DNA of 58,517 nt from Acidimicrobiia bacterium (GTDB lineage Bacteria; Actinomycetota; Acidimicrobiia; Spongiisociales; UBA5794). How positions within the stretch are numbered: the first letter of the stretch is position 1; each line of letters starts with the position of its first letter. The DNA lies in contig JABDJC010000083.1 of assembly GCA_013003395.1 (NCBI GenBank), forward strand, positions 1 to 58,517. The letters are read 5' to 3'. The translations under genes were made by a program, and so were the position numbers. The notes beneath the pieces are model-generated. The model was given only the letters and a program-made list of their open reading frames with translations. It was not told where the DNA came from and ran no database searches. Positions 1,148-19,092 of the stretch are shown piece by piece.

Positions 1148-1223
1148 TGGTAGCCCCGACCGGATTCGAACCGGCGTTACCGCCTTGAGAGGGCGGCGTC
1201 CTAGGCCACTAGACGACGGGGCC
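1148..1223 (-). tRNA. tRNA-Glu (anticodon CTC), CCA encoded
   Basis: The reverse complement GGCCCCGTCGTCTAGTGGCCTAGGACGCCGCCCTCTCAAGGCGGTAACGCCGGTTCGAATCCGGTCGGGGCTACCA folds as a cloverleaf. The anticodon loop CTCTCAA is flanked by a CCGCC/GGCGG stem, and there is a TTCGAAT T-loop. Confidence 0.93.
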
Positions 1224-1248: not shown

Positions 1249-1323
1249 TGGCTCGGGGGGGAGGACTCGAACCCCCAATGACGGGACCAGAACCCGGCGT
1301 GTTGCCAATTACACCACCCCCGA
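1249..1323 (-). tRNA. tRNA-Gln (anticodon CTG), CCA encoded
   Basis: The reverse complement TCGGGGGTGGTGTAATTGGCAACACGCCGGGTTCTGGTCCCGTCATTGGGGGTTCGAGTCCTCCCCCCCGAGCCA has a U1:A72 pair and G73 discriminator typical of tRNA-Gln. The anticodon loop is TTCTGGT and the T-loop is TTCGAGT. Confidence 0.9.
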
Positions 1324-6428: not shown

Positions 6429-8348
6429 TCAGAGATGACGTCCGTGCCACTCGAGGATCGCCTTGAACCGCTCCCGTCGATGCTTCGGAGAGCCGCCACG
6501 CGACATCTCGTGACCTTCGCCGGGGAACCGGAGGAACTCCGTCGTCACCCCATTGGCCATGAGTACGCCAAACAGCTGTTCCCCCTGCTCGATCGGGGTC
6601 CGGTAATCATTCTCTGAGTGAATGATCAACGTGGGCGTGTTGATCCGCGTCGCTTCAGCCAACGGACTCGCCTTCCACACCGCTTCTGCGTCTTCGATGA
6701 GCGACGTTTCGAGATAGCCGTTGGGGAACCACTGCCCGATGTCTGACGATCCCGTGAACGAGGTCCACGAGTACACGCCCCGCTCGGCAACTGCTGATCG
6801 GAACCGTTCGTCGCGGGCCGTCATCCGTGCGGTCATGAAGCCCCCGTACGAGCCCCCCATGATGCCGATGCGATCTCGATCGAGACGGGGAAAGCGCTCG
6901 AGGGCACCATCGAGAGCTGCGGTGACGTCGATCACGTCGGGTGGATCATCGCTCTGCCAGGTTCCGACAACACCCCGCAGATGATCACGACCTGCACCGC
7001 TCGATCCTCGCGGGTTGCAGGCCACCACTCCGTAACCGGCTTCCGTGTACACCTGGAACTCGTCGAAGAAGCCCCAGCCGTATTGAGCCGCTGGTCCGCC
7101 GTGGATGTTCAGCAACGTGGGCACGGGATCCTCACCGTCTGGCAGATACACCCACACGTCGACGTGCCCCCCATCGAACGGGACGGTGAAGTGCTCGGGT
7201 GTGACGAGCGACACCGAGTCGCTGAAGCCGCTGTTCAAATCGGTGATCGCGGTCGATTGGCCGTCTTCGTACCAGTAGACCTCGCCGGGGTTGTCGGTTG
7301 TCGATGCGGCGTACACCATTGCAGACCCGTCCGGACGACTCGTCACTCCGGAGACTGCCTGCTTGGCATCGATCAAGTCTTCGACGGTCCCATCTGGCAA
7401 AAAGCGCGACACGCGAACCGAGCCACGGTCTTCGACGACGCTCACGAACGAGCCGTCTGCCAGCCACTGCGGTCCCGCCGGCGTGATCTTCGGAGCGATG
7501 GGAAACAGGCTGAGGTCGTATGACGGCGTCACGTCTTCCCACTCACCGGACGATCCTCTTCGTTTGAGTGGAGCGAGGTCGGGCCACCCGTCCACCGCGG
7601 GGACCATGGCCACGTGCAAGGTTCCGTCGGGGCTGTATGACGGAGTGGGACCGAAGCACACCTCCGTCATCGCCGTCGGCTCGCCGCCGCTGACGTCGAT
7701 CTCCCAGACTTGGGCCCCCGGATCGAGGCTCTTCGTCGCGTGTTGCGAGCTCACGAACGCGATCGCGTTGCCATCCGGTCGCCACTCGATCTCGCCGACG
7801 TCATACGTGTCGGCGGTGAGCCGTTCGACGGCCTTGGATTCCACATCGAAGAGAAACAAACCGGAGCGCTTGTCATAGAGGTCGCCGAGGCCGTCGAATC
7901 GGGATGGCAGCTCGGTGATGCGCTTTGGCACCCTCGCCCTCTCGTCGTCGTCGAGATCGGCGTATTCAGACCGGTATTCGACTCCGACGACAGCCACTGA
8001 ACGCCCGTCTGGTGCCCACGAGATCTCGGTGACGCCCAACGCGAGTTCGGTGACCACTTCTGCCTCGCCACCGTCGAAGGGCATCAGAGCCAGCTGCGTG
8101 ACGGCACCGTCCTTGTCGTCCTTTCGGACGAACGCCAGGGTCGACCCGTCGGGAGACCAGCGAGGAGAGCCGTCGAAAGGCCCTGTGGTGAAAACGCGCG
8201 AAATCGTGCCGTCCCAGAGGTGTATCTGACGGACGTAGCGATCGCCTTCGAAGTCCATTCGTGTCACCACAAAGGCGACAGCCGTCCCATTCGGATGAAT
8301 CTGCGGGTCGCTCGGAACGGCGTACGAGTCGAGTTCTTCCGGTTTCAT
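6429..8348 (-). CDS. S9 family serine peptidase (prolyl oligopeptidase/acylaminoacyl-peptidase type)
   Basis: N-terminal beta-propeller-like region followed by a C-terminal alpha/beta hydrolase with a GGSYGG nucleophile elbow. ATG at 8348 preceded by AAAGGAG. Confidence 0.88.
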   Translation of the reverse strand: MKPEELDSYAVPSDPQIHPNGTAVAFVVTRMDFEGDRYVRQIHLWDGTISRVFTTGPFDGSPRWSPDGSTLAFVRKDDKDGAVTQLALMPFDGGEAEVVTELALGVTEISWAPDGRSVAVVGVEYRSEYADLDDDERARVPKRITELPSRFDGLGDLYDKRSGLFLFDVESKAVERLTADTYDVGEIEWRPDGNAIAFVSSQHATKSLDPGAQVWEIDVSGGEPTAMTEVCFGPTPSYSPDGTLHVAMVPAVDGWPDLAPLKRRGSSGEWEDVTPSYDLSLFPIAPKITPAGPQWLADGSFVSVVEDRGSVRVSRFLPDGTVEDLIDAKQAVSGVTSRPDGSAMVYAASTTDNPGEVYWYEDGQSTAITDLNSGFSDSVSLVTPEHFTVPFDGGHVDVWVYLPDGEDPVPTLLNIHGGPAAQYGWGFFDEFQVYTEAGYGVVACNPRGSSGAGRDHLRGVVGTWQSDDPPDVIDVTAALDGALERFPRLDRDRIGIMGGSYGGFMTARMTARDERFRSAVAERGVYSWTSFTGSSDIGQWFPNGYLETSLIEDAEAVWKASPLAEATRINTPTLIIHSENDYRTPIEQGEQLFGVLMANGVTTEFLRFPGEGHEMSRGGSPKHRRERFKAILEWHGRHL

Positions 8349-8440
8349 TGGTGGTCTCCTTTGGCGCATCGGAAACGTAGCAGCACATGGCGGTCAACTA
8401 GCCTCCACACCGCATCCATTCGACCCAGGAGAGACCGACC

Positions 8441-8899: not shown

Positions 8900-11800
8900 T
8901 CAGCGCACTTCCCGCAGTCTGTCCATCTCGTAGATAGCCCCGATCTGCTCGAAGCACTCTCTGGCACGGTCAACGTGACCCCGTTGCTCGATGGAGCCAT
9001 GCCGCGCGGAACGCGCAAGCCGATCGTTGAGCATGCCTTCGTCCCATATGAGACCCGCCGCTGCAGCCCGCCTGAGCCCTCGACTCCAGACTCGGCGCGC
9101 CGACCGAGTCCGTCCCCTGCCGTCGAGGGCAATGCCCTTGAACAAGGCGAAACGCGGTCGAGCGAACGGCAACACTCTGGCGAACATGCGCAGAACCCTC
9201 AGGCCTCGTCGCGTTTGACCCCGCAGTGCCTTGCGTTCTCGGGGGTCGGAGGTCTCGCGCTCCAACGTCGTGAAGGTCTCGAGCATGCCTGTGAGTCCCG
9301 CCAGGTAGATGAAGATCGGGGTCGAGTCGAATGCAGCCAGCGCGAGATCCGCACTTGCTCGGGCCTGCCGGAGGTCGCCAACACGAAGGCGGTATTGAGC
9401 TTGGGTCCCGTAGATGATCGGAATCGTCAAGGGATCAGCACCTTCGATGAGGTTCTCGGCGTCGAACACGAGCGAAGCTGCGTCCTGTGTTCGTCCCATC
9501 GAGAGCAGTACAGGGATACCCAGCGCAACCGCCCATCCTTCGTGTTCACGGCTGTCCCTCGCACGGGACGACTCGAGGAGCTGGGCATAGTCCTTCCAGG
9601 CCATGTCCATTGCGGTGGTGCAGTGACTCGCGAAGCCGCGGATGGCAAGACCGATCTCAGCCGAGTAGTGATCGCCAAGGCGTGCGCAACGATCGATCCC
9701 GTCGGTGACGAGCGGTTCCCCTTCGCTCCAACGGTTGAACGTGAGCAGGTAGGTGCTTTCGGACAGTGCCACGGCGATCAAATGCCCCGGTCCGAGGTCC
9801 GCGAGGCTGCGCGAGCCGACTCGCTCGGTGACTTCTCGCTCGGCCTCGAAGCGCTCTGCGGCGCGGGCCATCCTGAAGTAACGACGGGCAAGACGTTTCA
9901 GCCGCAGCGTTCCGACGAGATACCCCAGCGAGCTGTAGGCAACGCCCGCCGCAACAGGGTGGCCGGACTTTTCACCCAGATTGATGGCGCGCAGGTTGTA
10001 GAGCGGGAACCCGATGAGGTCGACGGTGAAGTACGAAAGCTCGCCGAGCAACGCGAAGACTCTGGCCGCCCGGGCCAGGCGTGCCGCCTCCTCGTCGGTC
10101 TTCGGGTTCCTCACGACGATCGGGATGAGGATGTGAACAATCTGCACGAGAAGACCCCACAGGACACCGGCAACTCTCCGAACGGTCCCGTTCAATGGCT
10201 CGAATCCGAGATAGTGCAACGCAGCCCTCAACTGCGTGTCAGCCTCGGTCAAGTCGCCAAGCGCCTCATGGGCTTGCCCGAGCTGCGTGTACCAGTCGGC
10301 ACGCTGCCTGTCGGTCACGAACCTGCCGTTGGCAGCGTCAAGGCTCAACGACTTGCGATGGAACGAAATCGCCTCCTTGTTCGAGCCCTTCGAGAATGCC
10401 GTGCCGCCTGCCCTCTCGAGGTATGAGACGGCTCGCGCTGGGTCATCGGCGCGCTCCCAGTGGTGCGCCAGAAGCGCATATCGTTCGTTCAACGGCTCGT
10501 GACCCTCCAGATACTCAGCCACCGCCTTGTGGAGGTTGCGTCGCTGCTCGTACGCCAGGAGCTCGTACGCCGCCTCCTGAATGATCACGTGCTTGAACTC
10601 GTGCGTGGTCTCCGTACCCCGATCGACGAGGCCCATCGTCTCCAAGTCGTCGAGCTCCGCCTCGAGTTCGTCGATCGTCATGGACACCGGGTGCACCGTC
10701 CGGACGATCTCATCATCGAAATTCCTGCCAACGACACTTGCGACCTTCACCGTGAGTTGTTGGCGCGATGACAGTTGATCGAGGCGACTCGTCACGATGT
10801 CCTGCAGCGTGTTGGGGAGATCGAGGCCGGCGAGCGCCGATTCGTTCATCAACAACCTCGCACGCCCATCCCTCACGCTCAGTGCGCCTCGATCCCGCAG
10901 AGCAAAGGCCAACTCTTCTGCATATAGGGGGTGGCCTTCGGACTTGCGGGCTATGACTCGGGCGATTTCGGGAGGGATGTCGTCGACCCCCAGCCGATCT
11001 GCAGCAAGAGCAACAACGTGATTTTCATCAAGCGGCTCGAGGGTCATTTCAGCCGTGGCCGCATCGGCGAGGAGGTCCGTCATGGTTTCTTCGGCGAGAC
11101 CCTCCGGACGTGAGGTCAGCACCAGCAAGAGGGGTTGAACTTCGCGCTTGACTGCCCCCAGCAACGCCCACGACGACGAGTCCGCCCACTGCACGTCCTC
11201 GAGGATCGCCACGATCGGTTGATCGGCGGCCAAGTTCTGGAGTAGGTGTACGACCATCTCGATGGTGGAACTCCTGCGGCTCGTGCCACTCATCGCCCTC
11301 GTGGTGGCATTCTCCGCGAGCCGAGTTCCCAAGACCGCGTTGAGGAGAGGCAGCCACTCCGTCAAGTCCGGACGACTCTCGAATCGACCGGCGATCGCCA
11401 CAGCTCTGGCGTCGGCGTCGAGCTCAGGTCCGAATCCCAAGAGTCCGTCCAACAGGTCACGCCACGCGTGATAGGGAGACGCTGACTCGAGTTCCGACGC
11501 TCCGCCGGTGCCTACCCGGACGCGGAAGGCCGCTGCGTCGTCCACCAACTCGTGCACCAATGCGGACTTCCCGATCCCCGGCTCGCCGTCGATGACGACC
11601 ACGCTCGACGTCCTCCCGTGGGCGAGTGCTCCCAGCCATGCGGTCAACTGCCGAAGCTCGCGCTCGCGGCCTATCACACGACGCTTGATCGAACTCGGTT
11701 GAGCGGCGCCGGCGTGGTCGGTCCAGAGCGCTCGATAGACGTCGACCGGGTGAGCGAATCCGTGTAGATCGACACGCCGCGGCTCGCCCAGCATGATTGC

Positions 11801-12982
11801 GGGACGACTCGCCGCAGCTGAGTTCTGATCGCAGATCACTTCGTTGTGCGACACCTTCATGAGTCGCGCCGCCATGTTCACCACTGGCCCGATCATCGTG
11901 TAGTCACGGCGACCGACTCCGCCGTAGGCGCCGCAGAAGGCCCGTCCGGTCGCCACGCCGATGCCGTGTTCGATGCGAGCCTCGACGAGTTGGCGGTTGA
12001 GACCGAGCGACGCTTCGAGTGCTCGAACCGCATCTCCGACGTGCGCCCTCGGGGGCAGGCCGAAGGCACAGACGAAGGTCGTGCCTTTCTCGTCGACCAG
12101 CACTTTGTTGAGCGTTCCTTCGTACTGATGGATGACGGTCTGGACGATGTGCGCCGCTCGCTCGACTTGAGCACGGTCGTTCTGGTCGACGCAGAAGAGC
12201 TTGGGCAAGTTGACCATTACGGCCGAGATGGAGCGCAGTTCAGCCAGCCAAGAGCCGCCGCCGACCTCCAGCCGGAGCCTGACGGTCTCAGCCACGTGAT
12301 TGCGCAGATCGATGACAATCCGATCGGGCACCGAGACAGCTCGGTGGCCAGGTAGGTGGTCGACGTCGACTCCCGAGACGCGGAGGCTCCCGCCACGGGA
12401 CGTGCCTCGCAGACGAGGACCTGCCGCGTCCCAAGCATCGCTCGACACCACGACCTCGCCAGGTTTGGCTATCTCTTGAGCCTCGCCCATCTGGACAAAG
12501 GGGACACCTCCAGCAACGAAGTGCCACTCGTTTCGGTCACCGCCGACATCCATGAGATACCCGGTACCGGCTCCGACTCCGACGCGAAGGGAAAGGTCTC
12601 GACCCTGCGACTCACCGAATCGTCGGACGGTGCCGACCGCTTCGAGTCCGCAATGCGCTGCCAACCGAACCGCCCCGCCGAGTTCCTCGCCTTCGGCTGC
12701 GGTCCAACCAGCAAGAATCGAGTCGCCGGCAAACCCCAGGATGTCGCCGCCGTGCCTCCGGATGCTGTCGATGACCTCCGCAAAGCAACTGTTGAGCAGG
12801 TCCGTCACCTGCTCGGGGCCGGCACGACTCGTTGCGAGTTCCTCCGTGAGTGCCGTGAAGCCAGAGAGGTCTCCAAACCACGCAACAAGGGGAACTGCGC
12901 CGCTGACCGGAGACGCGCCGGCAAGGCGCGCCAACAGAATGTCTGGCACGAAGTCCGCCAAAGCTTCCGATTCGGTCACCAT
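8900..12982 (-). CDS. Tandem class III nucleotidyl-cyclase domains + P-loop STAND/AAA ATPase + TPR-like repeat protein
   Basis: 1360 aa. CHD1 is about res 30-200 (FGDLSGFT, GFAGDSILA). CHD2 is about res 255-420 (GRAFCGAYGG..., GPVVNMAARL). Walker A GEPGIGKS is at 11564-11587 (res 466-473). The long helical repeat C-terminus has no recognisable HTH. Confidence 0.85.
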   Translation of the reverse strand: MVTESEALADFVPDILLARLAGASPVSGAVPLVAWFGDLSGFTALTEELATSRAGPEQVTDLLNSCFAEVIDSIRRHGGDILGFAGDSILAGWTAAEGEELGGAVRLAAHCGLEAVGTVRRFGESQGRDLSLRVGVGAGTGYLMDVGGDRNEWHFVAGGVPFVQMGEAQEIAKPGEVVVSSDAWDAAGPRLRGTSRGGSLRVSGVDVDHLPGHRAVSVPDRIVIDLRNHVAETVRLRLEVGGGSWLAELRSISAVMVNLPKLFCVDQNDRAQVERAAHIVQTVIHQYEGTLNKVLVDEKGTTFVCAFGLPPRAHVGDAVRALEASLGLNRQLVEARIEHGIGVATGRAFCGAYGGVGRRDYTMIGPVVNMAARLMKVSHNEVICDQNSAAASRPAIMLGEPRRVDLHGFAHPVDVYRALWTDHAGAAQPSSIKRRVIGRERELRQLTAWLGALAHGRTSSVVVIDGEPGIGKSALVHELVDDAAAFRVRVGTGGASELESASPYHAWRDLLDGLLGFGPELDADARAVAIAGRFESRPDLTEWLPLLNAVLGTRLAENATTRAMSGTSRRSSTIEMVVHLLQNLAADQPIVAILEDVQWADSSSWALLGAVKREVQPLLLVLTSRPEGLAEETMTDLLADAATAEMTLEPLDENHVVALAADRLGVDDIPPEIARVIARKSEGHPLYAEELAFALRDRGALSVRDGRARLLMNESALAGLDLPNTLQDIVTSRLDQLSSRQQLTVKVASVVGRNFDDEIVRTVHPVSMTIDELEAELDDLETMGLVDRGTETTHEFKHVIIQEAAYELLAYEQRRNLHKAVAEYLEGHEPLNERYALLAHHWERADDPARAVSYLERAGGTAFSKGSNKEAISFHRKSLSLDAANGRFVTDRQRADWYTQLGQAHEALGDLTEADTQLRAALHYLGFEPLNGTVRRVAGVLWGLLVQIVHILIPIVVRNPKTDEEAARLARAARVFALLGELSYFTVDLIGFPLYNLRAINLGEKSGHPVAAGVAYSSLGYLVGTLRLKRLARRYFRMARAAERFEAEREVTERVGSRSLADLGPGHLIAVALSESTYLLTFNRWSEGEPLVTDGIDRCARLGDHYSAEIGLAIRGFASHCTTAMDMAWKDYAQLLESSRARDSREHEGWAVALGIPVLLSMGRTQDAASLVFDAENLIEGADPLTIPIIYGTQAQYRLRVGDLRQARASADLALAAFDSTPIFIYLAGLTGMLETFTTLERETSDPRERKALRGQTRRGLRVLRMFARVLPFARPRFALFKGIALDGRGRTRSARRVWSRGLRRAAAAGLIWDEGMLNDRLARSARHGSIEQRGHVDRARECFEQIGAIYEMDRLREVR

Positions 12983-13063
12983 CGACAGGCCCCCTACGCC
13001 GAGCCCCCCTCACGGAAATGTATCACTCGCGTGGGATTCCAGTGGGTCTGTAGCCTCTCGCCC

Positions 13064-13972
13064 ATGGCAACCGAACAAGAAGAGATACGCGAGACCATGA
13101 CGGCGCGTCTCGGCTCTTTCACCGATCGTCTCGGCAGCCTGCAGCAGAGCCATCTGAATTCCCTACTCGAGCGGCGCAGGTATCTGGCGTCCGACACCGC
13201 GCTGTTCGACCCGCTCGGCCATCCGGTCGTGGTGATCGGATCGTGGATTTCACGCACCGACGATCCCCTTTCCGATACTCAACTCGACATCGCCGAGTCC
13301 AGCCTCCTCGGCTATCTCCATGTTCGATTGCAGGACGACCACCTGGACGACGGAACCGACCGTCCAGATGCGGTGATGATGCTCGGCGATGCGCTGATTG
13401 CCCGTCACAGCGCATTGCTGGCCAGGCACGTGTCATCAACCGTCTTCTGGAATGCGTTCGAAGAACTCTGGACCAATTACGGAGAAGCGATGCTCTACGA
13501 GCGGTCGCTCATCGAATCAAACGCAGTACGAACCGCCGAGGACTTCGATCGGCTCCTCCACCGATCTCGCCCCCTGTCCATTCCCGGCCTTGCGGCACTC
13601 GCGGTCGAGGACCGACTGGCGGAGGCCCCACATGTCATGGACCTCGTGACGGGAATCATCCGGTCCGGCCAACTTGTCACCGACCTGATGGACGCACCTG
13701 CAGACCTGGAGTCCGGCCGGCACACGTGGATCGTGGAGCGCCTCGATGGACGGCAAGGAGCATCAGCGTTGAAACGTGCGATGGTCCGCGAGTTCGACGG
13801 GATCCTTGCTGAAGCGGCGGCCGCACTCGATTCCGCAGCGAACGCCGCCGACGAGCTCGCCGCATCTAGGGCAACTCACTGGATTGATCAACGGCGTGAA
13901 CGCCTCGCCGATCTGCAGGCAACGTTTTTCGAGGGCCTCTTTTCCCCGCTACTCAGCCGACATGAGGAGTAG
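13064..13972 (+). CDS. Class I isoprenoid-synthase-fold protein, phytoene/squalene-synthase-like
   Basis: 302 aa. LLGYLHVRLQDDHLDDG (res 81-97) and QLVTDLMDAPADLESGRHTW (res 203-222) resemble the two Asp-rich motifs of SQS/PSY enzymes. Start taken at the first ATG outside the antisense overlap with the STAND gene. Confidence 0.6.
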   Translation: MATEQEEIRETMTARLGSFTDRLGSLQQSHLNSLLERRRYLASDTALFDPLGHPVVVIGSWISRTDDPLSDTQLDIAESSLLGYLHVRLQDDHLDDGTDRPDAVMMLGDALIARHSALLARHVSSTVFWNAFEELWTNYGEAMLYERSLIESNAVRTAEDFDRLLHRSRPLSIPGLAALAVEDRLAEAPHVMDLVTGIIRSGQLVTDLMDAPADLESGRHTWIVERLDGRQGASALKRAMVREFDGILAEAAAALDSAANAADELAASRATHWIDQRRERLADLQATFFEGLFSPLLSRHEE

Positions 13973-14012
13973 CGTTGTGTAAGCGTTCTCCCGACGCCAG
14001 AAGGGGCAGACA

Positions 14013-14237
14013 ATGAACGACGAACCAGCCATCCCCAATGAACTCATTGGACGAGCGATCACCGACCACGAATTCCGCGAGCGCTTCCTCGCCGACCCTC
14101 AGAAGACCCTGGACGATGAGGGCTACTCGCTGAAACTCAGTTCCAGCCAGCTCGAAGCGGTACAGGACTTGGATGACGGGGTCATCGACTTTGCCATCCA
14201 CGGAATCAGCAAGGGACGCCCTGAAACCATGGCGTGA
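14013..14237 (+). CDS. Small protein with nitrile-hydratase-leader-like (NHLP clan / Franean1_4349-like) N-terminus; candidate RiPP precursor or small partner protein
   Basis: 74 aa. ELIGRAITDHEFRERFLADPQKTLDDEGY resembles NHLP-type leaders. GAAGGGG lies 6 nt upstream of the ATG, and the ORF is in operon position between two enzymes. Confidence 0.55.
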   Translation: MNDEPAIPNELIGRAITDHEFRERFLADPQKTLDDEGYSLKLSSSQLEAVQDLDDGVIDFAIHGISKGRPETMA

Positions 14238-14247
14238 CCGCGCCGCG

Positions 14248-15027
14248 GTGACCACGTCGGGCGAACCACGGCGCATAGCCGAGTACTACGACCGATGGTC
14301 TCCGCTGTTTCTCCAGTCTTTCGGGTCGGTGTTTCAAGCGGGTCTTGTCGACCGGATGAGTCCGGCCGACTCGGTCGTCGAGATGACGAGCGATGTTCCG
14401 TTCGCAGCGGGAGACCTGATTCTCGACGCGGGGTGCGGGATCGGCGGACCGGCGATCGCGCTCGCGCAGGCGCATGCGGGAATCGAGATAGAAGCCATCA
14501 CGATCTCTCCCGTGCAGGCGACGATGGCCCGCGACCTCATCGCGGACGCTCACCTGGAGAATCGGGTACGGGTCGCCGTCGGCGACTATCACGCCCTCCC
14601 CTACGCAGACGCTGCGTTCGATCACGTGATCTTGTTTGAAGCGATCGGATACAGCCACGATCCGCAGCAGTTGCTCTCAGAGTTGCACCGGGTACTCAAA
14701 CCGAACGGCACGGTCTTCGTGAAGGACGTCTTTCGTCGCTCGGCTCCACTCACCGCCGATGAGCTTGCGGCGATGCAGGAATTCGATGAGTTGTGGGCAT
14801 GCGTCCGCTCCCCGAAGCTCTCCGAGATCGAGGCCACCGCATTGGCTGTCGGGTTCGTCGATGTGGTGGCCGCTCCGGTGGAGTTCTCAACTGAACGATT
14901 GCTCGGCGCGATGTTCAGGTTCTCGAGCAAAGGCATCGAATACTCGCAACTCGGCGAACAGTTCTATCGGCCAGATCTCAGGCCTCCGGTGGTCTTCGGT
15001 CGAGTCGTCGGCCGCAGACCCGCCTGA
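14248..15027 (+). CDS. Class I SAM-dependent methyltransferase (tocopherol/sterol/GPP-MT-like N-terminus)
   Basis: IAEYYDRWSPLF... followed by ILDAGCGIGGPA (motif I) and LKPNGTVFV. GTG at 14248 chosen to avoid a 65-nt overlap with the small ORF; the ORF-track start at 14173 is also possible. Confidence 0.8.
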   Translation: MTTSGEPRRIAEYYDRWSPLFLQSFGSVFQAGLVDRMSPADSVVEMTSDVPFAAGDLILDAGCGIGGPAIALAQAHAGIEIEAITISPVQATMARDLIADAHLENRVRVAVGDYHALPYADAAFDHVILFEAIGYSHDPQQLLSELHRVLKPNGTVFVKDVFRRSAPLTADELAAMQEFDELWACVRSPKLSEIEATALAVGFVDVVAAPVEFSTERLLGAMFRFSSKGIEYSQLGEQFYRPDLRPPVVFGRVVGRRPA

Positions 15028-15085: not shown

Positions 15086-15529
15086 ATGGAATCGTGGAAA
15101 GCGAAGCTCATCATCGTCGGAGTCGACGGGTCAGACGCGAGCGTCGATGCTGCCTCGGTTGCCGCCAGCCTGGCGAGAAGCGCAGGAGCCAGGCTCCACA
15201 TCGTGACCGTCGTCAAACCGCCAGAAGGATGGTGGGGAATCATCGAGTCCCCACCGACCGCTTCGGCCCTGGGCAACGCACTCGAGGAAGCGCAGCGCAA
15301 AGTGCTGGACCTGACAACCTCTCGCGTCGATCTCGACGGCATCGAATACGAGACGGTGGAGGAGATCGGCGATCCCGGCCGAGCTCTGGCGGGCTACTGC
15401 GAACAGCACGAAGCCGACCTCCTCGTGATTGGACGACACGGAGCCGGGTTGTTCGACCGACTCACAATCGGCTCCGTCACTCATCGACTACTGCATGACG
15501 CACCGTGTCCCGTGATGGTCGTGCCTTGA
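15086..15529 (+). CDS. Universal stress protein (UspA family)
   Basis: 147 aa. IIVGVDGSDAS... and a C-terminal GRHGAGLFDRLTIGSVTHRLLHDAPCPVMVV Usp ATP-binding pattern. GAGAGGAGG RBS. Confidence 0.88.
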   Translation: MESWKAKLIIVGVDGSDASVDAASVAASLARSAGARLHIVTVVKPPEGWWGIIESPPTASALGNALEEAQRKVLDLTTSRVDLDGIEYETVEEIGDPGRALAGYCEQHEADLLVIGRHGAGLFDRLTIGSVTHRLLHDAPCPVMVVP

Positions 15530-15535
15530 GCGGGA

Positions 15536-15892
15536 CTACTGCTGGAAGAACAGGTACCAGGCGCCGGCAGCGGTGATGCCTGAGGTGATGGCGACCTTCA
15601 CCGCGCTCTTGATGACGCCGTAGAACAGACCGATGACCGCCAGCACACCGATGATCAACAGGATTCCCGTGAAGAGCGGGTTCGCTGAAGCGAAGTCGAT
15701 GAGGCTTGTGGGAACCTTGTCGACGAGGTCGGCGGGCAGGTTGTTGATCACGTCTTCTGGAATCTTGTCGAGCGTGCCATCCTCCAGCTTCTGGCGAACG
15801 TCAGTCGGCAGCTGCTCGACGACATCCTGTGGTAGCTGATCGAGTACGTCAGAAGCGAAGAGCATGAGTTTGTCCATATAGGCCAAGAGCAT
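15536..15892 (-). CDS. Small tail-anchored membrane protein with octad D-V/L-x-x-x-L/V-P-x repeats
   Basis: DVLDQLPQ DVVEQLPT DV... IPE DVINNLPA DLVDKVPT, followed by two C-terminal hydrophobic segments. The start is uncertain (15892, 15877 or 15865). Confidence 0.55.
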   Translation of the reverse strand: MLLAYMDKLMLFASDVLDQLPQDVVEQLPTDVRQKLEDGTLDKIPEDVINNLPADLVDKVPTSLIDFASANPLFTGILLIIGVLAVIGLFYGVIKSAVKVAITSGITAAGAWYLFFQQ

Positions 15893-15956
15893 ACCGAAGG
15901 GTGAGTTTTTCACGGTGGAACCATGGGACGTGCCGTTTCCTGAGCGCAACATTCCG

Positions 15957-16316
15957 ATGTGGCGCCTCATCGCACGAGGCGCTGTTCGCCGCTGTGCTCG
16001 TTGTGGCCAAGGCCGTCTCTTCACGCGATGGTTCACGATGCGCCCTGACTGCCCGAGATGCGGTCTCCACTTCGAGCGAGAGCAGGGTTACTGGCTAGGC
16101 GCGATGACCCTCAACTTCGCCGTAACCGAGGCTATGTTCGTTGTGGTGCTCGTCGCAACGATGGCGATCACCTGGCCGGATGTGCCGTGGGGAACGCTGC
16201 TCATTGCGGTGCTCGCGACAAACGTCATCGTCCCGTTGGTGTTCTATCCGATATCGAAGACGATTTGGGTCGGACTCGAGCGCGGAGTGCGCAGTCGACT
16301 CGATTTCGCCGGTTGA
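15957..16316 (+). CDS. DUF983-like zinc-ribbon membrane protein
   Basis: CARCGQG...CPRCG Cys4 ribbon followed by two TM helices. Start at the internal ATG; 15915 is also possible. Confidence 0.65.
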   Translation: MWRLIARGAVRRCARCGQGRLFTRWFTMRPDCPRCGLHFEREQGYWLGAMTLNFAVTEAMFVVVLVATMAITWPDVPWGTLLIAVLATNVIVPLVFYPISKTIWVGLERGVRSRLDFAG

Positions 16317-16338
16317 CGCCACAACTACCCTCGATGCG

Positions 16339-19092
16339 ATGAGAACCATCGACGACGAACTACCTGAGGCCGCCGACGCGGCTCTCCGCCTCGACATCCG
16401 GCTCCTGGGCAACCTGCTGGGCGAAACCCTCGTCCGCCAGGAGGGTCCGGAACTTCTCGATCTGGTCGAGCGAGTGAGAGCGCTCACCAAGAAGCTGCGG
16501 TCGACCGAAGACCATCCGGAAGCCGGCGCCGCTCTGGCCGCCCTGCTCGACGGGTTGGATCTCGACGACACGATCAAGCTCGTGCGTGCGTTCTCGGCGT
16601 TCTTCTACCTTGCGAATGTCGCAGAACAGACGCACCGACTCGACGAGCAATCGGCACGAGGACGCCGCCGTGGACAGCTCCAGTCCACCGTCGACCGCAT
16701 CCTGGAAGCCGACCTCTCGACCGACCTGGTGAACCACGTCGTCGATCGACTCGACGTCTGGCCGGTGTTCACGGCGCACCCGACCGAAGCCGCTCGGCGC
16801 TCGATCCTCTCGAAAGTACGCAAGGTGGCCGAGTTGCTCGAACTTCGCTCCGACCCTCGGAACACCGAGGCCGATCTCGACAGGACCGAGCGCAGGCTTG
16901 CCGAGGTGATCGATCTGATCTGGCAGACCGACGAATTGCGCGGCACTCGACCGACACCCGATGACGAGGCCAACTCGGTCGTGTATTACCTCGAAGAGAT
17001 CTACAACGAGGTGATCCCGGACCTACTGGACGAACTCGACCACCAGTTGTCTCGACTCGGTGTGAGTCTGCCTACAACTCGCACCGTTCTTCGACTGGGG
17101 AGCTGGGTGGGCGGAGATCGCGACGGCAATCCGAACATCACACCCGAGGTCACGATGCGGGTGCTCCAGGACCAGCACGACCACGCGTTGCGATCGCTGA
17201 TCGGGGCGGTCGAGCAATTGTCAGCCGAATTGAGTTCCTCAGTTCGAGTGGTCGGCATCTCCAGCGACTTGGGGCGCTCTCTCGATGTCGACAAGGAACA
17301 CCTTCCCGGTGTCTATGAGCGCTTTCGTCACCTGTCTGCCGGCGAACCGTATCGAATGAAGTGCGCATACGTCCACGCCAAGCTGCGCAACACCTTGCGC
17401 CGCATTCAAGAAGGGTTGCCGCATGACCCGGGTCGCGACTACCTCGAGGTCAATGGCTTCATTCAGGATCTAGCGCTCATTCACGGCTCGCTGAGGTCGA
17501 ACCAGGGCGAGCTCATTGCGAATGGCACCGTCGCTCGCCTCATGAGAAGAGCTGCCGCGAGTGGATTCCATCTCGCAACCATGGACATCCGCCAGCACGC
17601 GCTGAAGCACCACGCTGCCGCTGCCGTCCTCTTCGATCGAGTTGGCATCGACTACGAAGCACTGAGTCGTGACGAGCGAATCGCGCTCCTCAGTTCCGAA
17701 CTCGCGGGAAGCCGGCCACTGTCATCACGAGCGACAATCGTCTCCGGCGAGCCGGGCGCGACGCTCGACACGTTTGCGATGATCGGATCGGCGTTTGATC
17801 GGTTCGGGCCGGACATCATCGAGAGCTACATCATCTCGGAGACCGTCGATGTCGATGACGTGCTGGCTCCTGCGGTGCTGGCTCGCGAAGCCGGACTGAT
17901 CGATGTGCCGAGCGGCATCGCCCAAATCGGATTCGTGCCGTTGTTCGAGACAACCGAAGAGGTGCGCGCCGCCGGCGAGACGCTCGACAAGCTTCTGAGC
18001 GACCCGAGCTATCGCGAGATCGTGAGACTCCGCGGCGATGTCCAGGAGGTCATGCTCGGCTACTCCGACTCGAACAAGCATGGCGGCATCACCACGTCTC
18101 AATGGGAGCTGTACAAGGCATCGCGAGCTTTGCGCGACTCGGCCCACAACGAGGGTGTCGAACTCCGGATCTTCCACGGCAGAGGCGGCACGGTCGGCCG
18201 GGGTGGCGGACCGACTGGTGACGCAATCCTCGCGCAACCGTGGGCGACGATCGACGGGCGAATCAAGATCACCGAGCAGGGCGAGGTGATCGCCGACAAG
18301 TACGGCCTGCCGTCGTTGGCGCGGGCGAACCTGGAATTGACCGTTGCGGCAACTCTCGAGGCGTCGTTGCTGCACCGTACGCCACGTCAGCCACCAGAAA
18401 TGCTCGCCAAGTGGGACGAGATCATGGACGTCATCTCGTCCAGCGCGTTCAGCGCGTATCGAGATCTGATAGACGACCCTTCTCTCGTCCCGTACTTCAC
18501 CTCCTCGACACCAGTCAACGAACTCGGGGCGATGAACATCGGTTCGCGTCCAGCGCGCCGCCCAGGTTCGGCTGGATTGTCAGGACTTCGCGCTATCCCC
18601 TGGGTGTTCGGCTGGACGCAGACTCGCCAAATCGTGCCAGGTTGGTACGGGGTTGGCACGGGCTTGGAAGCGGCGGTTGCGGCAGGTCATCGCGAAGACA
18701 TCATCGAGATGTACGAACAGTGGAGCTTCTTCCGAACCTTCATATCCAACGTCGAGATGACCCTCAGCAAGACCGATTTGTCAGTCACGAGCCGCTACGT
18801 CGAGCAGCTCGTCGAACCCGAGCACCGAAGCGTGGCCAAGCGAATTCGCGAAGAGCATGACCGCACACTGGCCGAGCTCCTCACGGTCACGGGCAGCTCT
18901 GCCCCGCTAGACGACATTCCGGTACTGCAACGCACGCTGGCGGTGCGAGATGCGTACATCGACCCGATGAGCTACCTCCAGGTGGCCCTGCTCAAGAGGG
19001 TTCGAGGCCAAGAACGCCCCGATCCAGAACTCCAACGCGCTCTCCTGCTCACGATGAACGGCATTGCAGCTGGACTTCGCAACACGGGCTGA
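16339..19092 (+). CDS. ppc: Phosphoenolpyruvate carboxylase
   Basis: 917 aa from ATG 16339. VFTAHPTEAxRR, GYSDSNKHGG and FHGRGGTVGRGGGP motifs, with a C-terminal ...NG(I/T)AAGLRNTG. Confidence 0.95.
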   Translation: MRTIDDELPEAADAALRLDIRLLGNLLGETLVRQEGPELLDLVERVRALTKKLRSTEDHPEAGAALAALLDGLDLDDTIKLVRAFSAFFYLANVAEQTHRLDEQSARGRRRGQLQSTVDRILEADLSTDLVNHVVDRLDVWPVFTAHPTEAARRSILSKVRKVAELLELRSDPRNTEADLDRTERRLAEVIDLIWQTDELRGTRPTPDDEANSVVYYLEEIYNEVIPDLLDELDHQLSRLGVSLPTTRTVLRLGSWVGGDRDGNPNITPEVTMRVLQDQHDHALRSLIGAVEQLSAELSSSVRVVGISSDLGRSLDVDKEHLPGVYERFRHLSAGEPYRMKCAYVHAKLRNTLRRIQEGLPHDPGRDYLEVNGFIQDLALIHGSLRSNQGELIANGTVARLMRRAAASGFHLATMDIRQHALKHHAAAAVLFDRVGIDYEALSRDERIALLSSELAGSRPLSSRATIVSGEPGATLDTFAMIGSAFDRFGPDIIESYIISETVDVDDVLAPAVLAREAGLIDVPSGIAQIGFVPLFETTEEVRAAGETLDKLLSDPSYREIVRLRGDVQEVMLGYSDSNKHGGITTSQWELYKASRALRDSAHNEGVELRIFHGRGGTVGRGGGPTGDAILAQPWATIDGRIKITEQGEVIADKYGLPSLARANLELTVAATLEASLLHRTPRQPPEMLAKWDEIMDVISSSAFSAYRDLIDDPSLVPYFTSSTPVNELGAMNIGSRPARRPGSAGLSGLRAIPWVFGWTQTRQIVPGWYGVGTGLEAAVAAGHREDIIEMYEQWSFFRTFISNVEMTLSKTDLSVTSRYVEQLVEPEHRSVAKRIREEHDRTLAELLTVTGSSAPLDDIPVLQRTLAVRDAYIDPMSYLQVALLKRVRGQERPDPELQRALLLTMNGIAAGLRNTG

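Follow-up and report, generated by a model that had tools for sequence, protein, structure and literature searches.

The window analysed here, the whole stretch of 58,517 nt, carries on its forward strand a 74-codon gene (14013..14237) for a small protein of the NHLP clan, a putative precursor ("X" gene). The gene lies between those for a 302-aa protein with a predicted trans-isoprenyl diphosphate synthase (IPPS) fold and for a SAM-dependent methyltransferase. A large signalling NTPase is encoded on the opposite strand. The first-pass annotation had given a translation of 14013..14237, which is exact. It had also read GAAGGGG 6 nt before the start codon; this Shine-Dalgarno-like element is found at 14000..14006 (+ strand), followed by the spacer cagaca and the ATG at 14013. 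Third codon positions had been described as GC-rich like those of the neighbours, and the GC content at the three codon positions is 0.64, 0.37 and 0.72, with a GC3 of 0.72-0.79 in the neighbouring genes.

The small gene was compared with its homologues at two related loci (L001 and L002). Synonymous differences are near saturation (pS 0.67-0.85), pN is 0.19-0.26, and dN/dS is approximately 0.1-0.2 where it is computable. The last 18 codons are constrained at least as strongly as the rest of the gene (pN 0.13-0.18 in the same comparisons). These substitution patterns mark the 74-codon ORF as a genuine gene that is conserved and under purifying selection.

A likeness to leaders of the NHLP and Franean1_4349 type had been noted, and comparison with profile HMMs of leader families bears it out. 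The protein matches NF038399 ("Os1348 family NHLP clan protein") over residues 9-56 with 49.7 bits (E 2.9e-13), above the cutoff of 40. The same profile is matched by 14 of the 14 peptides in alignment A6 (best E 1e-19), which holds 13 peptides that adjoin an enzyme gene and one, from locus L018, without an enzyme. PF14407 (Frankia_peptide) is matched with 44.9 bits (E 1.4e-11), 3 bits short of the gathering score of 48, and this family is assigned to the protein and its relatives in the precomputed annotation of the sequence collection. The TIGR03793 NHLP leader profile matches residues 8-40 only, at 23.6 bits, far below its cutoff of 50.9. Weak matches to TIGR04351 (putative TOMM peptide) and to cinnamycin-type leaders are likewise far below the cutoffs. 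Nitrile hydratase alpha is also among the matches. In ECOD, the curators assign ComX, Frankia_peptide, Nif11 and NHase_alpha to a single LigA-like homology group (PMC12353581).

The protein has a conserved leader core (residues 8-38, 14034..14126, + strand) and a clade-specific tail. The tail spans residues 63-74 (14199..14234, + strand), reads HGISKGRPETMA and falls inside the motif FAIHGIxKGRxxxMA; the C-terminal tail peptide is FAIHGISKGRPETMA. There are no Cys, no Gly-Gly and no Trp in the protein. The C-terminus had been called non-canonical, and it indeed lacks a GG motif and a Cys-rich core.

An alignment of homologues had been proposed to distinguish a precursor from a uniformly conserved partner. 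Identity between clades falls from 45% in the leader to 28% in the middle and 11% in the tail (the last ~12 residues). This pattern is precursor-like, because the leader is conserved and the tail varies between clades. Within the clade of the window the whole length is conserved, with 72% identity in both the leader and the tail. No tail residue is common to all clades. The 74-aa protein and three close relatives have no Trp, and the second residue from the end is an invariant Met in the window clade. The penultimate residue is Trp in the sister peptides L015, P0011 and P0015, which finish in AKW[AG]; in those of L008 and L012, which finish in KSGW, Trp is the C-terminal residue.

The gene upstream (13064..13972, + strand) encodes the 302-aa all-helical enzyme, a ComQ/PalQ/StheQ-like "Q" gene by its predicted fold and motifs, and ends 40 nt before the peptide gene. 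Its start at ATG 13064 is backed by homologues; read as the mechanical ORF 12356..13972, it would run into the gene on the minus strand. The enzyme has no Pfam or NCBIfam match, even at E values up to 10, and no PDB sequence match with either the single sequence or a profile. An AlphaFold2 model from 3 sequences was unusable (pLDDT 46), and a confident model needed an alignment of 12 homologues (pLDDT 90.4, pTM 0.88). When this model was compared with the PDB by Foldseek, the best 50 matches were all trans-isoprenyl diphosphate synthases or the indole prenyltransferase Ord1 (TM 0.44-0.65, best E 4.6e-4). The top match is 3aqb_B, the large subunit of a heterodimeric hexaprenyl diphosphate synthase. 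A profile alignment (hhalign) with E. coli IspB aligned the region of the second motif with a probability of only 12%, which is consistency and not proof.

The motifs agree with the fold. The first Asp-rich (FARM-like) motif, D91-D92-H-L-D95, lies at the C-terminus of helix 71-94 and is unchanged in all 14 homologues. Further motif residues are E146, R167, Q203-x-x-T206-D207-x-x-D210, D214 and G218. Invariant across the 14 homologues are GY[LF]xxRxxDDxxD, E146, R167 and Q203-x-x-X-D207-x-x-D210. Residue 206 is Thr in the window clade and His, Glu or Thr in other clades; Asn is found only in L015 and L017, which carry the true "ND" form (QLFND). Q203, D207 and D210 have the spacing of Q212, D216 and D219 in StheQ. 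With its first Asp replaced, the second motif resembles the "pseudo-SARM" of peptide prenyltransferases and not the DDxxD of chain-elongating synthases. From the model and these residues, the 302-aa protein is confidently predicted to have a trans-IPPS-type fold with DDxxD and Q-x-x-[T/H/N]-D-x-x-D motifs, a combination that has been described for the peptide prenyltransferases ComQ and StheQ. D91, D92, D95, E146, R167, Q203, D207 and D210 are kept across 32-70% identity, all Trp-less clades included, and this invariance argues for retained diphosphate/Mg2+ chemistry.

Downstream of the peptide gene lies a gene for a class I SAM-dependent methyltransferase of 259 aa (14248..15027, + strand; Pfam Methyltransf_11, _25 and _31), read from GTG 14248. 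Starting instead at the in-frame ATG 14173 would make the gene overlap that of the peptide. The N-terminus from the GTG aligns with that of the L002 homologue, whose start forms a GTGA overlap with the peptide stop. The methyltransferase is 40-46% identical to those 3' of the peptide in L010, L015 and L017, and its nearest solved structures are MitM, RebM, TleD and BezA. The first-pass annotation had guessed at methylation or prenylation of the peptide, and this putative chemistry fits the types of the flanking genes, a SAM methyltransferase downstream and an IPPS-fold protein upstream.

Divergent from the enzyme gene and 81 nt apart from it is the gene for a signalling NTPase of 1360 aa (8900..12982, - strand) with one or more cyclase-homology domains, AAA_16 and TPR (Pfam Guanylate_cyc, AAA_16 and TPR). 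It partially matches TIGR03903 ("TOMM system kinase/cyclase fusion protein") with 192 bits, the cutoff being 706. Full-length homologues are found in L015 (42% identity, divergent) and L010 (37%, co-directional), and in the sister clade a Pkinase-AAA_16-TPR protein takes the place of the cyclase-AAA_16-TPR protein. We regard the 1360-aa protein as a candidate regulator or sensor of the cassette. This conserved gene and the 302-aa gene upstream of the peptide are absent from the first-pass annotation.

The cassette contains no histidine kinase of the ComP or PalP type, the conserved signalling neighbour being the cyclase-AAA_16-TPR or Pkinase-AAA_16-TPR protein, and no protease or exporter gene. 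GNAT, HEXXH and SagB-type dehydrogenase genes are found neither in the cassette nor among the larger ORFs scanned (~1.3-27.7 kb of the window). Genes for YcaO, radical-SAM, LanM/LanB or ATP-grasp enzymes or for a C39 transporter did not turn up in the same scan of larger ORFs, and an ATP-grasp domain was found neither in the window neighbourhood nor at any related locus. A role in cleaving the tail or leader was considered for the S9 peptidase (6429..8369) and rejected, the Pro of the tail not being conserved. The downstream Usp, DUF983 and PEP carboxylase genes were dropped from the cassette because they are syntenic only in the closest relatives and not in L010, L015 and L017.

The window and 10 independent metagenomic lineages (as listed: L001, the contig of P0002, L002, L003, L004-6, L007, L008-9, L010-11, L012-13, L015-16 and L017) share an enzyme gene with, directly after it, a gene for a 70-76-aa peptide of the NHLP-clan family. 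Enzyme identity across the lineages is 32-70%, and the flanking genes differ between them. A homologous SAM methyltransferase lies 3' of the peptide in five lineages and a homologous cyclase-AAA-TPR protein of 1320-1370 aa occurs in three; the sister clade has the enzyme and the peptide and no methyltransferase. Whether homologues occur next to enzyme genes had been raised as a check, and the peptide adjoins them in the window and the related loci, the exception without a 302-aa-type enzyme being L018. A word-index search returned two close relatives with the peptide alone and two with the enzyme alone. Neither the peptide alignment A1 nor the enzyme alignment A2 gave a match when scanned against 185,579 representative genomes. 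At the level of motif applied in these scans, the enzyme-peptide family appears to be missing from species-representative genomes. A tblastn search of plasmids also found nothing. The locus is carried only by low-coverage metagenome contigs, the lineage being uncultured bacteria of beach sand and marine sediment, and in the source annotation all members found are unnamed or hypothetical proteins.

A close parallel is found in Sphaerobacter thermophilus (Chloroflexi), where StheQ is a peptide prenyltransferase of the ComQ family and the 69-aa StheX its substrate (10.64898/2026.08.29.745113). The motifs of StheQ are the FARM D85/E86/D89, D153, K174, Q212 and N215/D216/D219; N215 is proposed to position Trp, and the acceptor in StheX is W68 (10.64898/2026.08.29.745113). 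StheX has an ordered region (residues 1-59) and a flexible tail of ~10 residues, and binds StheQ tightly and independently of the catalytic residues of StheQ (10.64898/2026.08.29.745113). The window shares with this system the all-helical IPPS fold, an ORF of ~70 aa directly 3' of the enzyme gene, and a peptide with an ordered helical body and a flexible tail. It also shares a FARM of the form D-[D/E]-x-x-D, a Gln three residues before an X-D-x-x-D pseudo-SARM, and a spacing of 21 residues between the acidic and basic residues (D153-K174 in StheQ, E146-R167 in the window enzyme). The sister cassette L015 has an ND pseudo-SARM and a Trp second from the C-terminus like W68. The window differs in that its peptide has no Trp and an invariant Met at -2, Thr stands at the equivalent of N215, and the distance from the FARM to the Gln is ~14 residues shorter. 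It also has a methyltransferase and a cyclase-AAA-TPR protein in the cassette, neither of which is mentioned in the preprint.

PalQ/PalX/PalP of Paenibacillus alvei has an NHLP-type precursor whose leader enhances enzyme binding, and PalQ is strictly specific for C-terminal Trp, all other electron-rich residues tested having been rejected (PMC10853753). As with PalQ, an enzyme of the isoprene synthase superfamily (in the window by its predicted fold) that had been misannotated or left unannotated is paired with an NHLP-type precursor, a putative one in the window. The Asp motifs are similarly placed (D89/D93 and D200/D204 in PalQ, the second preceded by a conserved Gln), the locus also encodes a signalling protein, and the peptides of the sister loci L008 and L012 end in Trp like PalX. 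The window tail ends in TMA whereas that of PalX has a C-terminal Trp. PalX matches classical NHLP sequences (IIQKAWEDP...), and the window peptide matches the Os1348/Frankia_peptide branch. The PalQ cluster has a histidine kinase partner where the window has the cyclase-AAA-TPR NTPase, and no methyltransferase. ComQ/ComX/ComP/ComA quorum sensing of Bacillus has the logic proposed for the window, in which an IPPS-fold enzyme acts on the tail of an adjoining small precursor and a sensor is encoded beside them. ComX has a Trp acceptor, which the window tail does not, and its precursors are shorter. ComP is a membrane histidine kinase, and the lineage considered here is one of uncultured sand and sediment bacteria.

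We put at about an even chance the reading that the 74-aa protein is the precursor ("X") of a peptide-modification cassette of the ComQ/ComX, PalQ/PalX or StheQ/StheX type. The substrate role is the most likely one given the place of the gene just 3' of a prenyltransferase-fold enzyme and usually 5' of a methyltransferase. As a Trp acceptor is missing from the window tail FAIHGIxKGRxxxMA, the cassette would be a new variant of the PalX/StheX/ComX type. That the enzyme is homologous to ComQ, PalQ and StheQ is argued from fold, motif pattern and gene order, its sequence similarity to canonical IPPS being weak. In the proposed mechanism, the helical NHLP-like leader (about residues 8-62) would dock on the 302-aa enzyme. 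The enzyme would bind a prenyl diphosphate via Mg2+ at DDxxD and move the prenyl group onto the flexible C-terminal tail. The downstream methyltransferase would then methylate the peptide or its prenyl chain. The product would probably be a signal, read or controlled by the neighbouring cyclase-AAA-TPR protein, which would hold the place of the histidine kinases ComP and PalP of the Firmicute systems. We infer the peptide as substrate, prenylation as the reaction, the acceptor residue and the signalling role.

Several observations count against lipidation. Trp, the sole acceptor demonstrated for ComQ, PalQ and StheQ, is missing from the window tail, and the window clade has Thr206 where StheQ has N215. 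In addition, the cassette is without a protease or exporter, no tail residue is universal, and the L018 peptide has no enzyme. A lipidation independent of Trp is a more specific proposal and, in our estimate, an unlikely one. The IPPS-fold enzyme would prenylate His63, Arg69, Met73 or the C-terminal carboxylate, methylation would follow, and the TPR of a STAND-type nucleotide cyclase would sense the product inside the cell. Met73 of the window peptide sits where sister peptides have Trp.

To our knowledge, peptide prenylation by isoprenoid-synthase-fold enzymes was long held peculiar to Bacillus ComQ/ComX, and only PalQ (2023) and StheQ (a 2026 preprint), both of which modify Trp, extend it. 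The window represents a metagenome-only, unannotated family of enzyme-peptide pairs with diverse tails, several without Trp; a methyltransferase and large cyclase or kinase NTPases are recurrent companions of these pairs. They offer a concrete functional context for part of the Os1348/Frankia_peptide family. If Trp-less members are modified, the acceptor chemistry of this enzyme class would be wider, which would be useful for enzymatic peptide lipidation, and a lipidated-peptide signalling system wired to a cyclic-nucleotide output would be indicated. Trp-independent lipidation would define a new class of lipidated signal peptides and a ComQXP-like circuit with such an output in uncultured sediment bacteria.

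The alternative that ranks next, though we hold it to be unlikely, is that the 74-aa protein folds and partners the enzyme without being its substrate, as a small subunit, specificity factor or regulator. The product of the enzyme and the methyltransferase would then be a methylated small-molecule isoprenoid. Precedents would be the small subunits of heteromeric prenyl diphosphate synthases and LigA in LigAB, and the top structural match 3aqb_B is the large subunit of such a heterodimer. Os1348, on which the family was founded, folds stably into a six-helix dimer (PMC7726476), and the NHLP/LigA-like module is also a structural part of enzymes, as the nitrile hydratase alpha matches illustrate. 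The window tail has no known prenyl acceptor motif, the protein is conserved over its whole length within the clade, and the prenyl-chain C-methyltransferases TleD and BezA are among the nearest solved relatives of the methyltransferase. The last ~12 residues, however, are hypervariable between clades next to a conserved leader, which is unusual for a structural subunit. The Trp residues of the sister cassettes occupy the exact positions that StheQ and PalQ modify, the second motif resembles the pseudo-SARM rather than the chain-elongating DDxxD, and StheX, which is also ordered over residues 1-59, is nevertheless a substrate.

It is quite improbable that the peptide is a precursor modified by the methyltransferase only, with the IPPS-fold protein serving as a leader-binding scaffold that has lost catalysis. 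The window clade lacks both the acceptor Trp and the pseudo-SARM Asn, and the tight binding of StheX by StheQ without need of catalytic residues sets a precedent. The eight motif residues D91 to D210 named above are nonetheless invariant in the Trp-less clades as well, and the sister clade keeps the enzyme and the peptide with no methyltransferase.

Very improbable is a classical NHLP, proteusin, TOMM or lanthipeptide precursor whose YcaO, radical-SAM or lanthionine processing enzymes would lie at another locus. The window peptide and classical NHLP/Nif11 precursors have in common the three-helix leader motif LIxRAxxDxxFRxxLLxDP, which derives from the nitrile hydratase alpha subunit. In favour of this reading are the weak TIGR03793, TIGR04351 and cinnamycin-type matches and the partial TIGR03903 match of the 1360-aa neighbour. 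These scores are, however, far below the cutoffs, including that of TIGR03793, the profile of proteusins, TOMMs and class II lanthipeptides. The window peptide also differs in having no GG site, no Cys and no Cys/Ser/Thr-rich core, and YcaO, radical-SAM, LanM/LanB, ATP-grasp and C39 transporter genes did not appear in the scanned set of larger ORFs. Its companions from locus to locus are the genes for the IPPS-fold enzyme and the methyltransferase. Franean1_4349-type peptides were associated with ATP-grasp peptide ligases in the original 2009 description (cited in PMC8939145). The founder of NF038399, Os1348 from cluster OS3 of Pseudomonas sp. Os17 (PDB 6lk7), has a GNAT acetyltransferase, a HEXXH protein and a SagB-type dehydrogenase as neighbours (PMC7726476). 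Both Os1348 and the window peptide are small Cys-poor NHLP-clan proteins of this one NCBIfam family, without a GG motif and presumed to be modified by adjacent genes. They differ in that the window peptide is flanked by genes for an IPPS-fold enzyme and a SAM methyltransferase, its HMM match is confined to residues 9-56, and the pairwise similarity to 6lk7 is weak (E 0.0077).

A chance, untranslated ORF in GC-rich DNA, of the kind that 145 mechanical ORFs of at least 50 aa in 18 kb of the window might suggest, is effectively refuted by the profile matches (E 1e-11 to 1e-13), the low dN/dS, the Shine-Dalgarno-like element, the gene-like GC3 and a position that is kept in 10 lineages.

The 74-residue ORF at 14013..14237 (forward strand) is a real gene under purifying selection, and a chance ORF is excluded. 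Codon comparisons with two relatives (70% and 58% identical) give a near-saturated pS of 0.67-0.85 and a pN of 0.19-0.26, with constraint on the last 18 codons at least as strong (pN 0.13-0.18). The translation is exactly that reported in the first-pass annotation, and the other features described there are present: a Shine-Dalgarno-like GAAGGGG at 14000..14006, 6 bases 5' of the ATG, GC-rich third positions (0.64/0.37/0.72 by codon position, resembling the confident genes of the 62.6% GC window), and a peptide with neither Cys nor Gly-Gly.

The resemblance to NHLP-type leaders is borne out by a profile match. NCBIfam NF038399, "Os1348 family NHLP clan protein", matches the peptide with 49.7 bits (E 2.9e-13, cutoff 40), and Pfam PF14407 Frankia_peptide reaches 44.9 bits against a gathering score of 48. 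A profile built from the close relatives recovers nitrile hydratase alpha subunits as well, and the crystal structure of Os1348 (6lk7) as a weak match. In ECOD, curators have independently assigned ComX, Frankia_peptide, Nif11 and NHase_alpha to a single LigA-like homology group (PMC12353581). NF038399 was founded on Os1348, an 85-aa protein of Pseudomonas sp. Os17 that forms a six-helix dimer and has GNAT, HEXXH and SagB-type neighbours (PMC7726476); it shares the family of the window peptide but differs in its neighbours.

The gene directly upstream encodes a 302-aa enzyme (13064..13972, forward strand) that ends 40 nt 5' of the peptide gene. Its ATG was set by homologues. The mechanical ORF is 538 aa (12356..13972) and overlaps the minus-strand gene 8900..12982 by more than 600 nt, and its conservation in homologues is confined to the final 302 codons, which begin at 13064. 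Such a gene could be mis-started or dropped by an automatic annotator. Searches of Pfam, NCBIfam and PDB sequences returned no match to the protein up to E = 10. An AlphaFold2 model from a 3-sequence alignment had a pLDDT of 46, while a 12-sequence alignment that included more distant homologues gave an all-helical model with pLDDT 90.4 and pTM 0.88. All of the top 50 Foldseek PDB matches to this model are trans-isoprenyl diphosphate synthases (hexaprenyl, octaprenyl, decaprenyl, GGPP and FPP types) or the all-helical indole prenyltransferase Ord1 (TM-scores 0.44-0.65, best E-value 4.6e-4). Judged from the predicted structure, the 302-aa protein is an isoprenoid-synthase-fold enzyme.

Its motifs were compared across 14 homologues, which are 32-70% identical to the window enzyme. 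Invariant are GY[LF]xxRxxDDxxD, whose D91, D92 and D95 lie where helix 71-94 ends; E146 together with R167, which is part of an RSxPL motif; and Q203-x-x-X-D207-x-x-D210 followed by D214, G218 and T221, located at the end of helix 185-216. In a weak hhalign alignment to E. coli IspB (probability 12%), RSRPL falls opposite the "KT" region of IspB, and the second motif opposite FQLIDDLLD...DDLNEGKPT.

Two known systems have a comparable arrangement. In Paenibacillus alvei, PalQ is an isoprene-synthase-superfamily enzyme with an NHLP-type precursor, PalX, of which only the C-terminal Trp is prenylated, and a histidine kinase is encoded alongside (PMC10853753). In the Chloroflexi bacterium Sphaerobacter thermophilus, the ComQ-family IPPS-fold enzyme StheQ is followed just downstream by the 69-aa peptide StheX. 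StheX is ordered over residues 1-59 and has a flexible tail at 60-69, in which W68 is farnesylated by StheQ (bioRxiv 10.64898/2026.08.29.745113). Key StheQ residues are D85/E86/D89 of the first aspartate-rich motif, D153, K174, Q212, and N215/D216/D219 of the altered second motif, or pseudo-SARM (bioRxiv 10.64898/2026.08.29.745113). The window enzyme follows this pattern with DDxxD, then E146...R167, then Q-x-x-X-D-x-x-D, where X, Asn in StheQ, is Thr in the window clade; the spacing of E146...R167 is the same 21 residues as that of D153...K174. The exact StheQ "ND" form is found in the homologues of metagenome loci L015 and L017.

A peptide gene of the same family lies directly 3' of the enzyme gene in 10/10 further lineages with readable context (L001, P0002's contig, L002, L003, L004-6, L007, L008-9, L010-11, L012-13, L015-16 and L017); L001, P0002's contig and L002 form a clade with the window. 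The exception is L018, where the peptide follows a ~370-aa protein with no IPPS-fold enzyme between. In L004-6 and L007 the peptide gene is present though uncalled by the source. Such small genes are easily missed, as with the 72-aa peptide gene at L007 8979..9197, which follows the enzyme gene and has the tail VGDRRAAT. The L003 peptide ORF is cut after 41 codons, where the last ~45 nt of the contig (1900..1946) are at 35% GC; the probable cause is an artefact of assembly or adapters, not a genuinely short peptide.

Two types of cassette can be distinguished. Type A (enzyme, peptide, methyltransferase) is found in the window clade, L010, L015 and L017, and its flanks otherwise vary, with CotH and LOG-family genes in L011, for example. 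Type B (L003-L009, L012-13) has no methyltransferase. Instead, a ~370-aa unknown protein is translationally coupled 5' of the enzyme, its gene overlapping that of the enzyme by 4 nt, and a Pkinase-AAA_16-TPR protein or a stand-alone cyclase is encoded nearby. The ~370-aa family (L004 6898..8004; L008 3629..4747; L012 1589..2695; L018 2..1114; L003 41..811) lacks both a Pfam match and a window homologue. In some cassettes, large unknown proteins (619 aa, 685 aa) are encoded after the peptide or methyltransferase (L008 6000..7859; L012 3935..4525; L010 2254..4311), the gene of the 619-aa protein overlapping the peptide stop codon; these have no significant Pfam match and no window homologue by tblastn.

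The class I SAM methyltransferase of the window starts at GTG 14248 (forward strand), 10 nt 3' of the peptide stop, with an alternative ATG at 14173. Its nearest solved relatives are natural-product enzymes: MitM, RebM, the prenyl C-methyltransferases TleD and BezA, and a sterol C-methyltransferase. Methyltransferases of the other type A cassettes are 40-46% identical to it. In P0065, a 112-aa peptide relative from the exhaustive search, the leader continues into the N-terminal motif of the methyltransferase (...YDRWTELFLRGFGPVFQAG). By its sequence this looks like a frameshift or read-through call, and the fusion adds evidence for abutting peptide and methyltransferase genes, a type A order, in another lineage.

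Divergent to the enzyme, a minus-strand gene (8900..12982) encodes a protein of 1360 aa in which AAA_16 and TPR accompany two cyclase-homology stretches (residues ~35-147 and ~296-381). Its match to TIGR03903, "TOMM system kinase/cyclase fusion protein", is no more than partial (192 bits, cutoff 706). Full-length homologues accompany the L015 (42% identity) and L010 (37%) cassettes, and a sister clade has similar-sized Pkinase-AAA_16-TPR proteins instead.

The exhaustive profile search found 70 peptide relatives, mostly 60-90 aa, with a common N-terminus and short, varied tails. By the yardstick set in the first-pass annotation, the homologue alignment is precursor-like. With one representative per clade (six enzyme-linked clades and L018), identity between clades is 45% in the leader (residues 8-38), 28% in the middle (39-62) and 11% in the tail (63 to end); within the window clade the values are 72%, 49% and 72%. 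The tails are FAIHGIx[KR]GRxxxMA in the window clade, ...AKW[AG] in L015, P0011 and P0015, ...GRGPE in L017 and P0019, ...GDGTTG in L010, ...VGD[KR]RAAT in L004 and L007, and ...KSGW in L008 and L012. The L015 peptide, with Trp second from the end, is StheX-like, and those of L008 and L012, ending in Trp, are PalX-like. Invariant within the window clade are His63, Arg69, Met73 (the position of Trp in L015) and the C-terminal Ala74. The combination of a conserved leader and a tail that is clade-specific but locally constrained is the signature of a recognition domain plus core.

The most fitting description of the cassette is a new variant, lacking Trp, of the recently recognised peptide-prenylation cassettes of the ComQ/PalQ/StheQ type. 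It is coupled to a methyltransferase and a STAND-type cyclase, and its family is unannotated and known only from metagenomes. Assignment to this type is based on fold, motif pattern, gene order and the Trp tails that sister cassettes have, rather than on direct alignment. Most likely, the helical leader would dock the peptide on the 302-aa enzyme, DDxxD-bound Mg2+ and a prenyl diphosphate would alkylate a tail residue, the methyltransferase would add a methyl group, and the cyclase-AAA-TPR protein would sense or regulate the product, in place of ComP or PalP. The first-pass interpretation is supported, including its suggestion of methylation or prenylation.

The main difficulty for prenylation is that the window-clade tail, unlike the ComQ/PalQ/StheQ substrates, has no Trp and that the equivalent of StheQ N215 is Thr. 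The catalytic-looking Asp, Glu, Arg and Gln of the enzyme are nevertheless invariant in all Trp-less clades, which argues for retained chemistry, possibly on a nucleophile other than Trp. We give the peptide about an even chance of being the precursor of a modification cassette. The chief rival, in which an isoprenoid-forming enzyme has the small protein as a partner and not as a substrate, is less likely. A classical NHLP precursor is rejected: TIGR03793 scores only 23.6 bits (cutoff 50.9), and no YcaO, radical-SAM, lanthionine synthetase, ATP-grasp or C39-transporter genes were found among the larger ORFs scanned in ~1.3-27.7 kb of the window.

An S9 prolyl-oligopeptidase-family protein with a beta-propeller (6429..8369, minus strand), encoded two genes away from the cassette, is a possible processing protease; it matches a lasso-peptide isopeptidase model below threshold (98.8 bits, cutoff 400), and the Pro in the peptide tail is not conserved among close relatives. 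The universal stress protein (15086..15529, forward), small unknown ORF (15536..16036, minus) and PEP carboxylase (16141..19092, forward) are neighbours by descent and outside the system, because their synteny with the cassette is limited to its closest relatives (L001, P0002's contig) and does not extend to L010, L015 or L017. Genes scanned outside the cassette are otherwise housekeeping (PEP carboxylase, GatA/GatB, HAD, PgpA, Usp), and two adjacent minus-strand tRNA genes lie at 1151..1223 and 1252..1323 (Rfam RF00005, 61 and 53 bits). All relatives come from metagenomes, any source name given being "hypothetical protein", and the runs in which the window itself occurs are metagenomes of beach sand and marine sediment.
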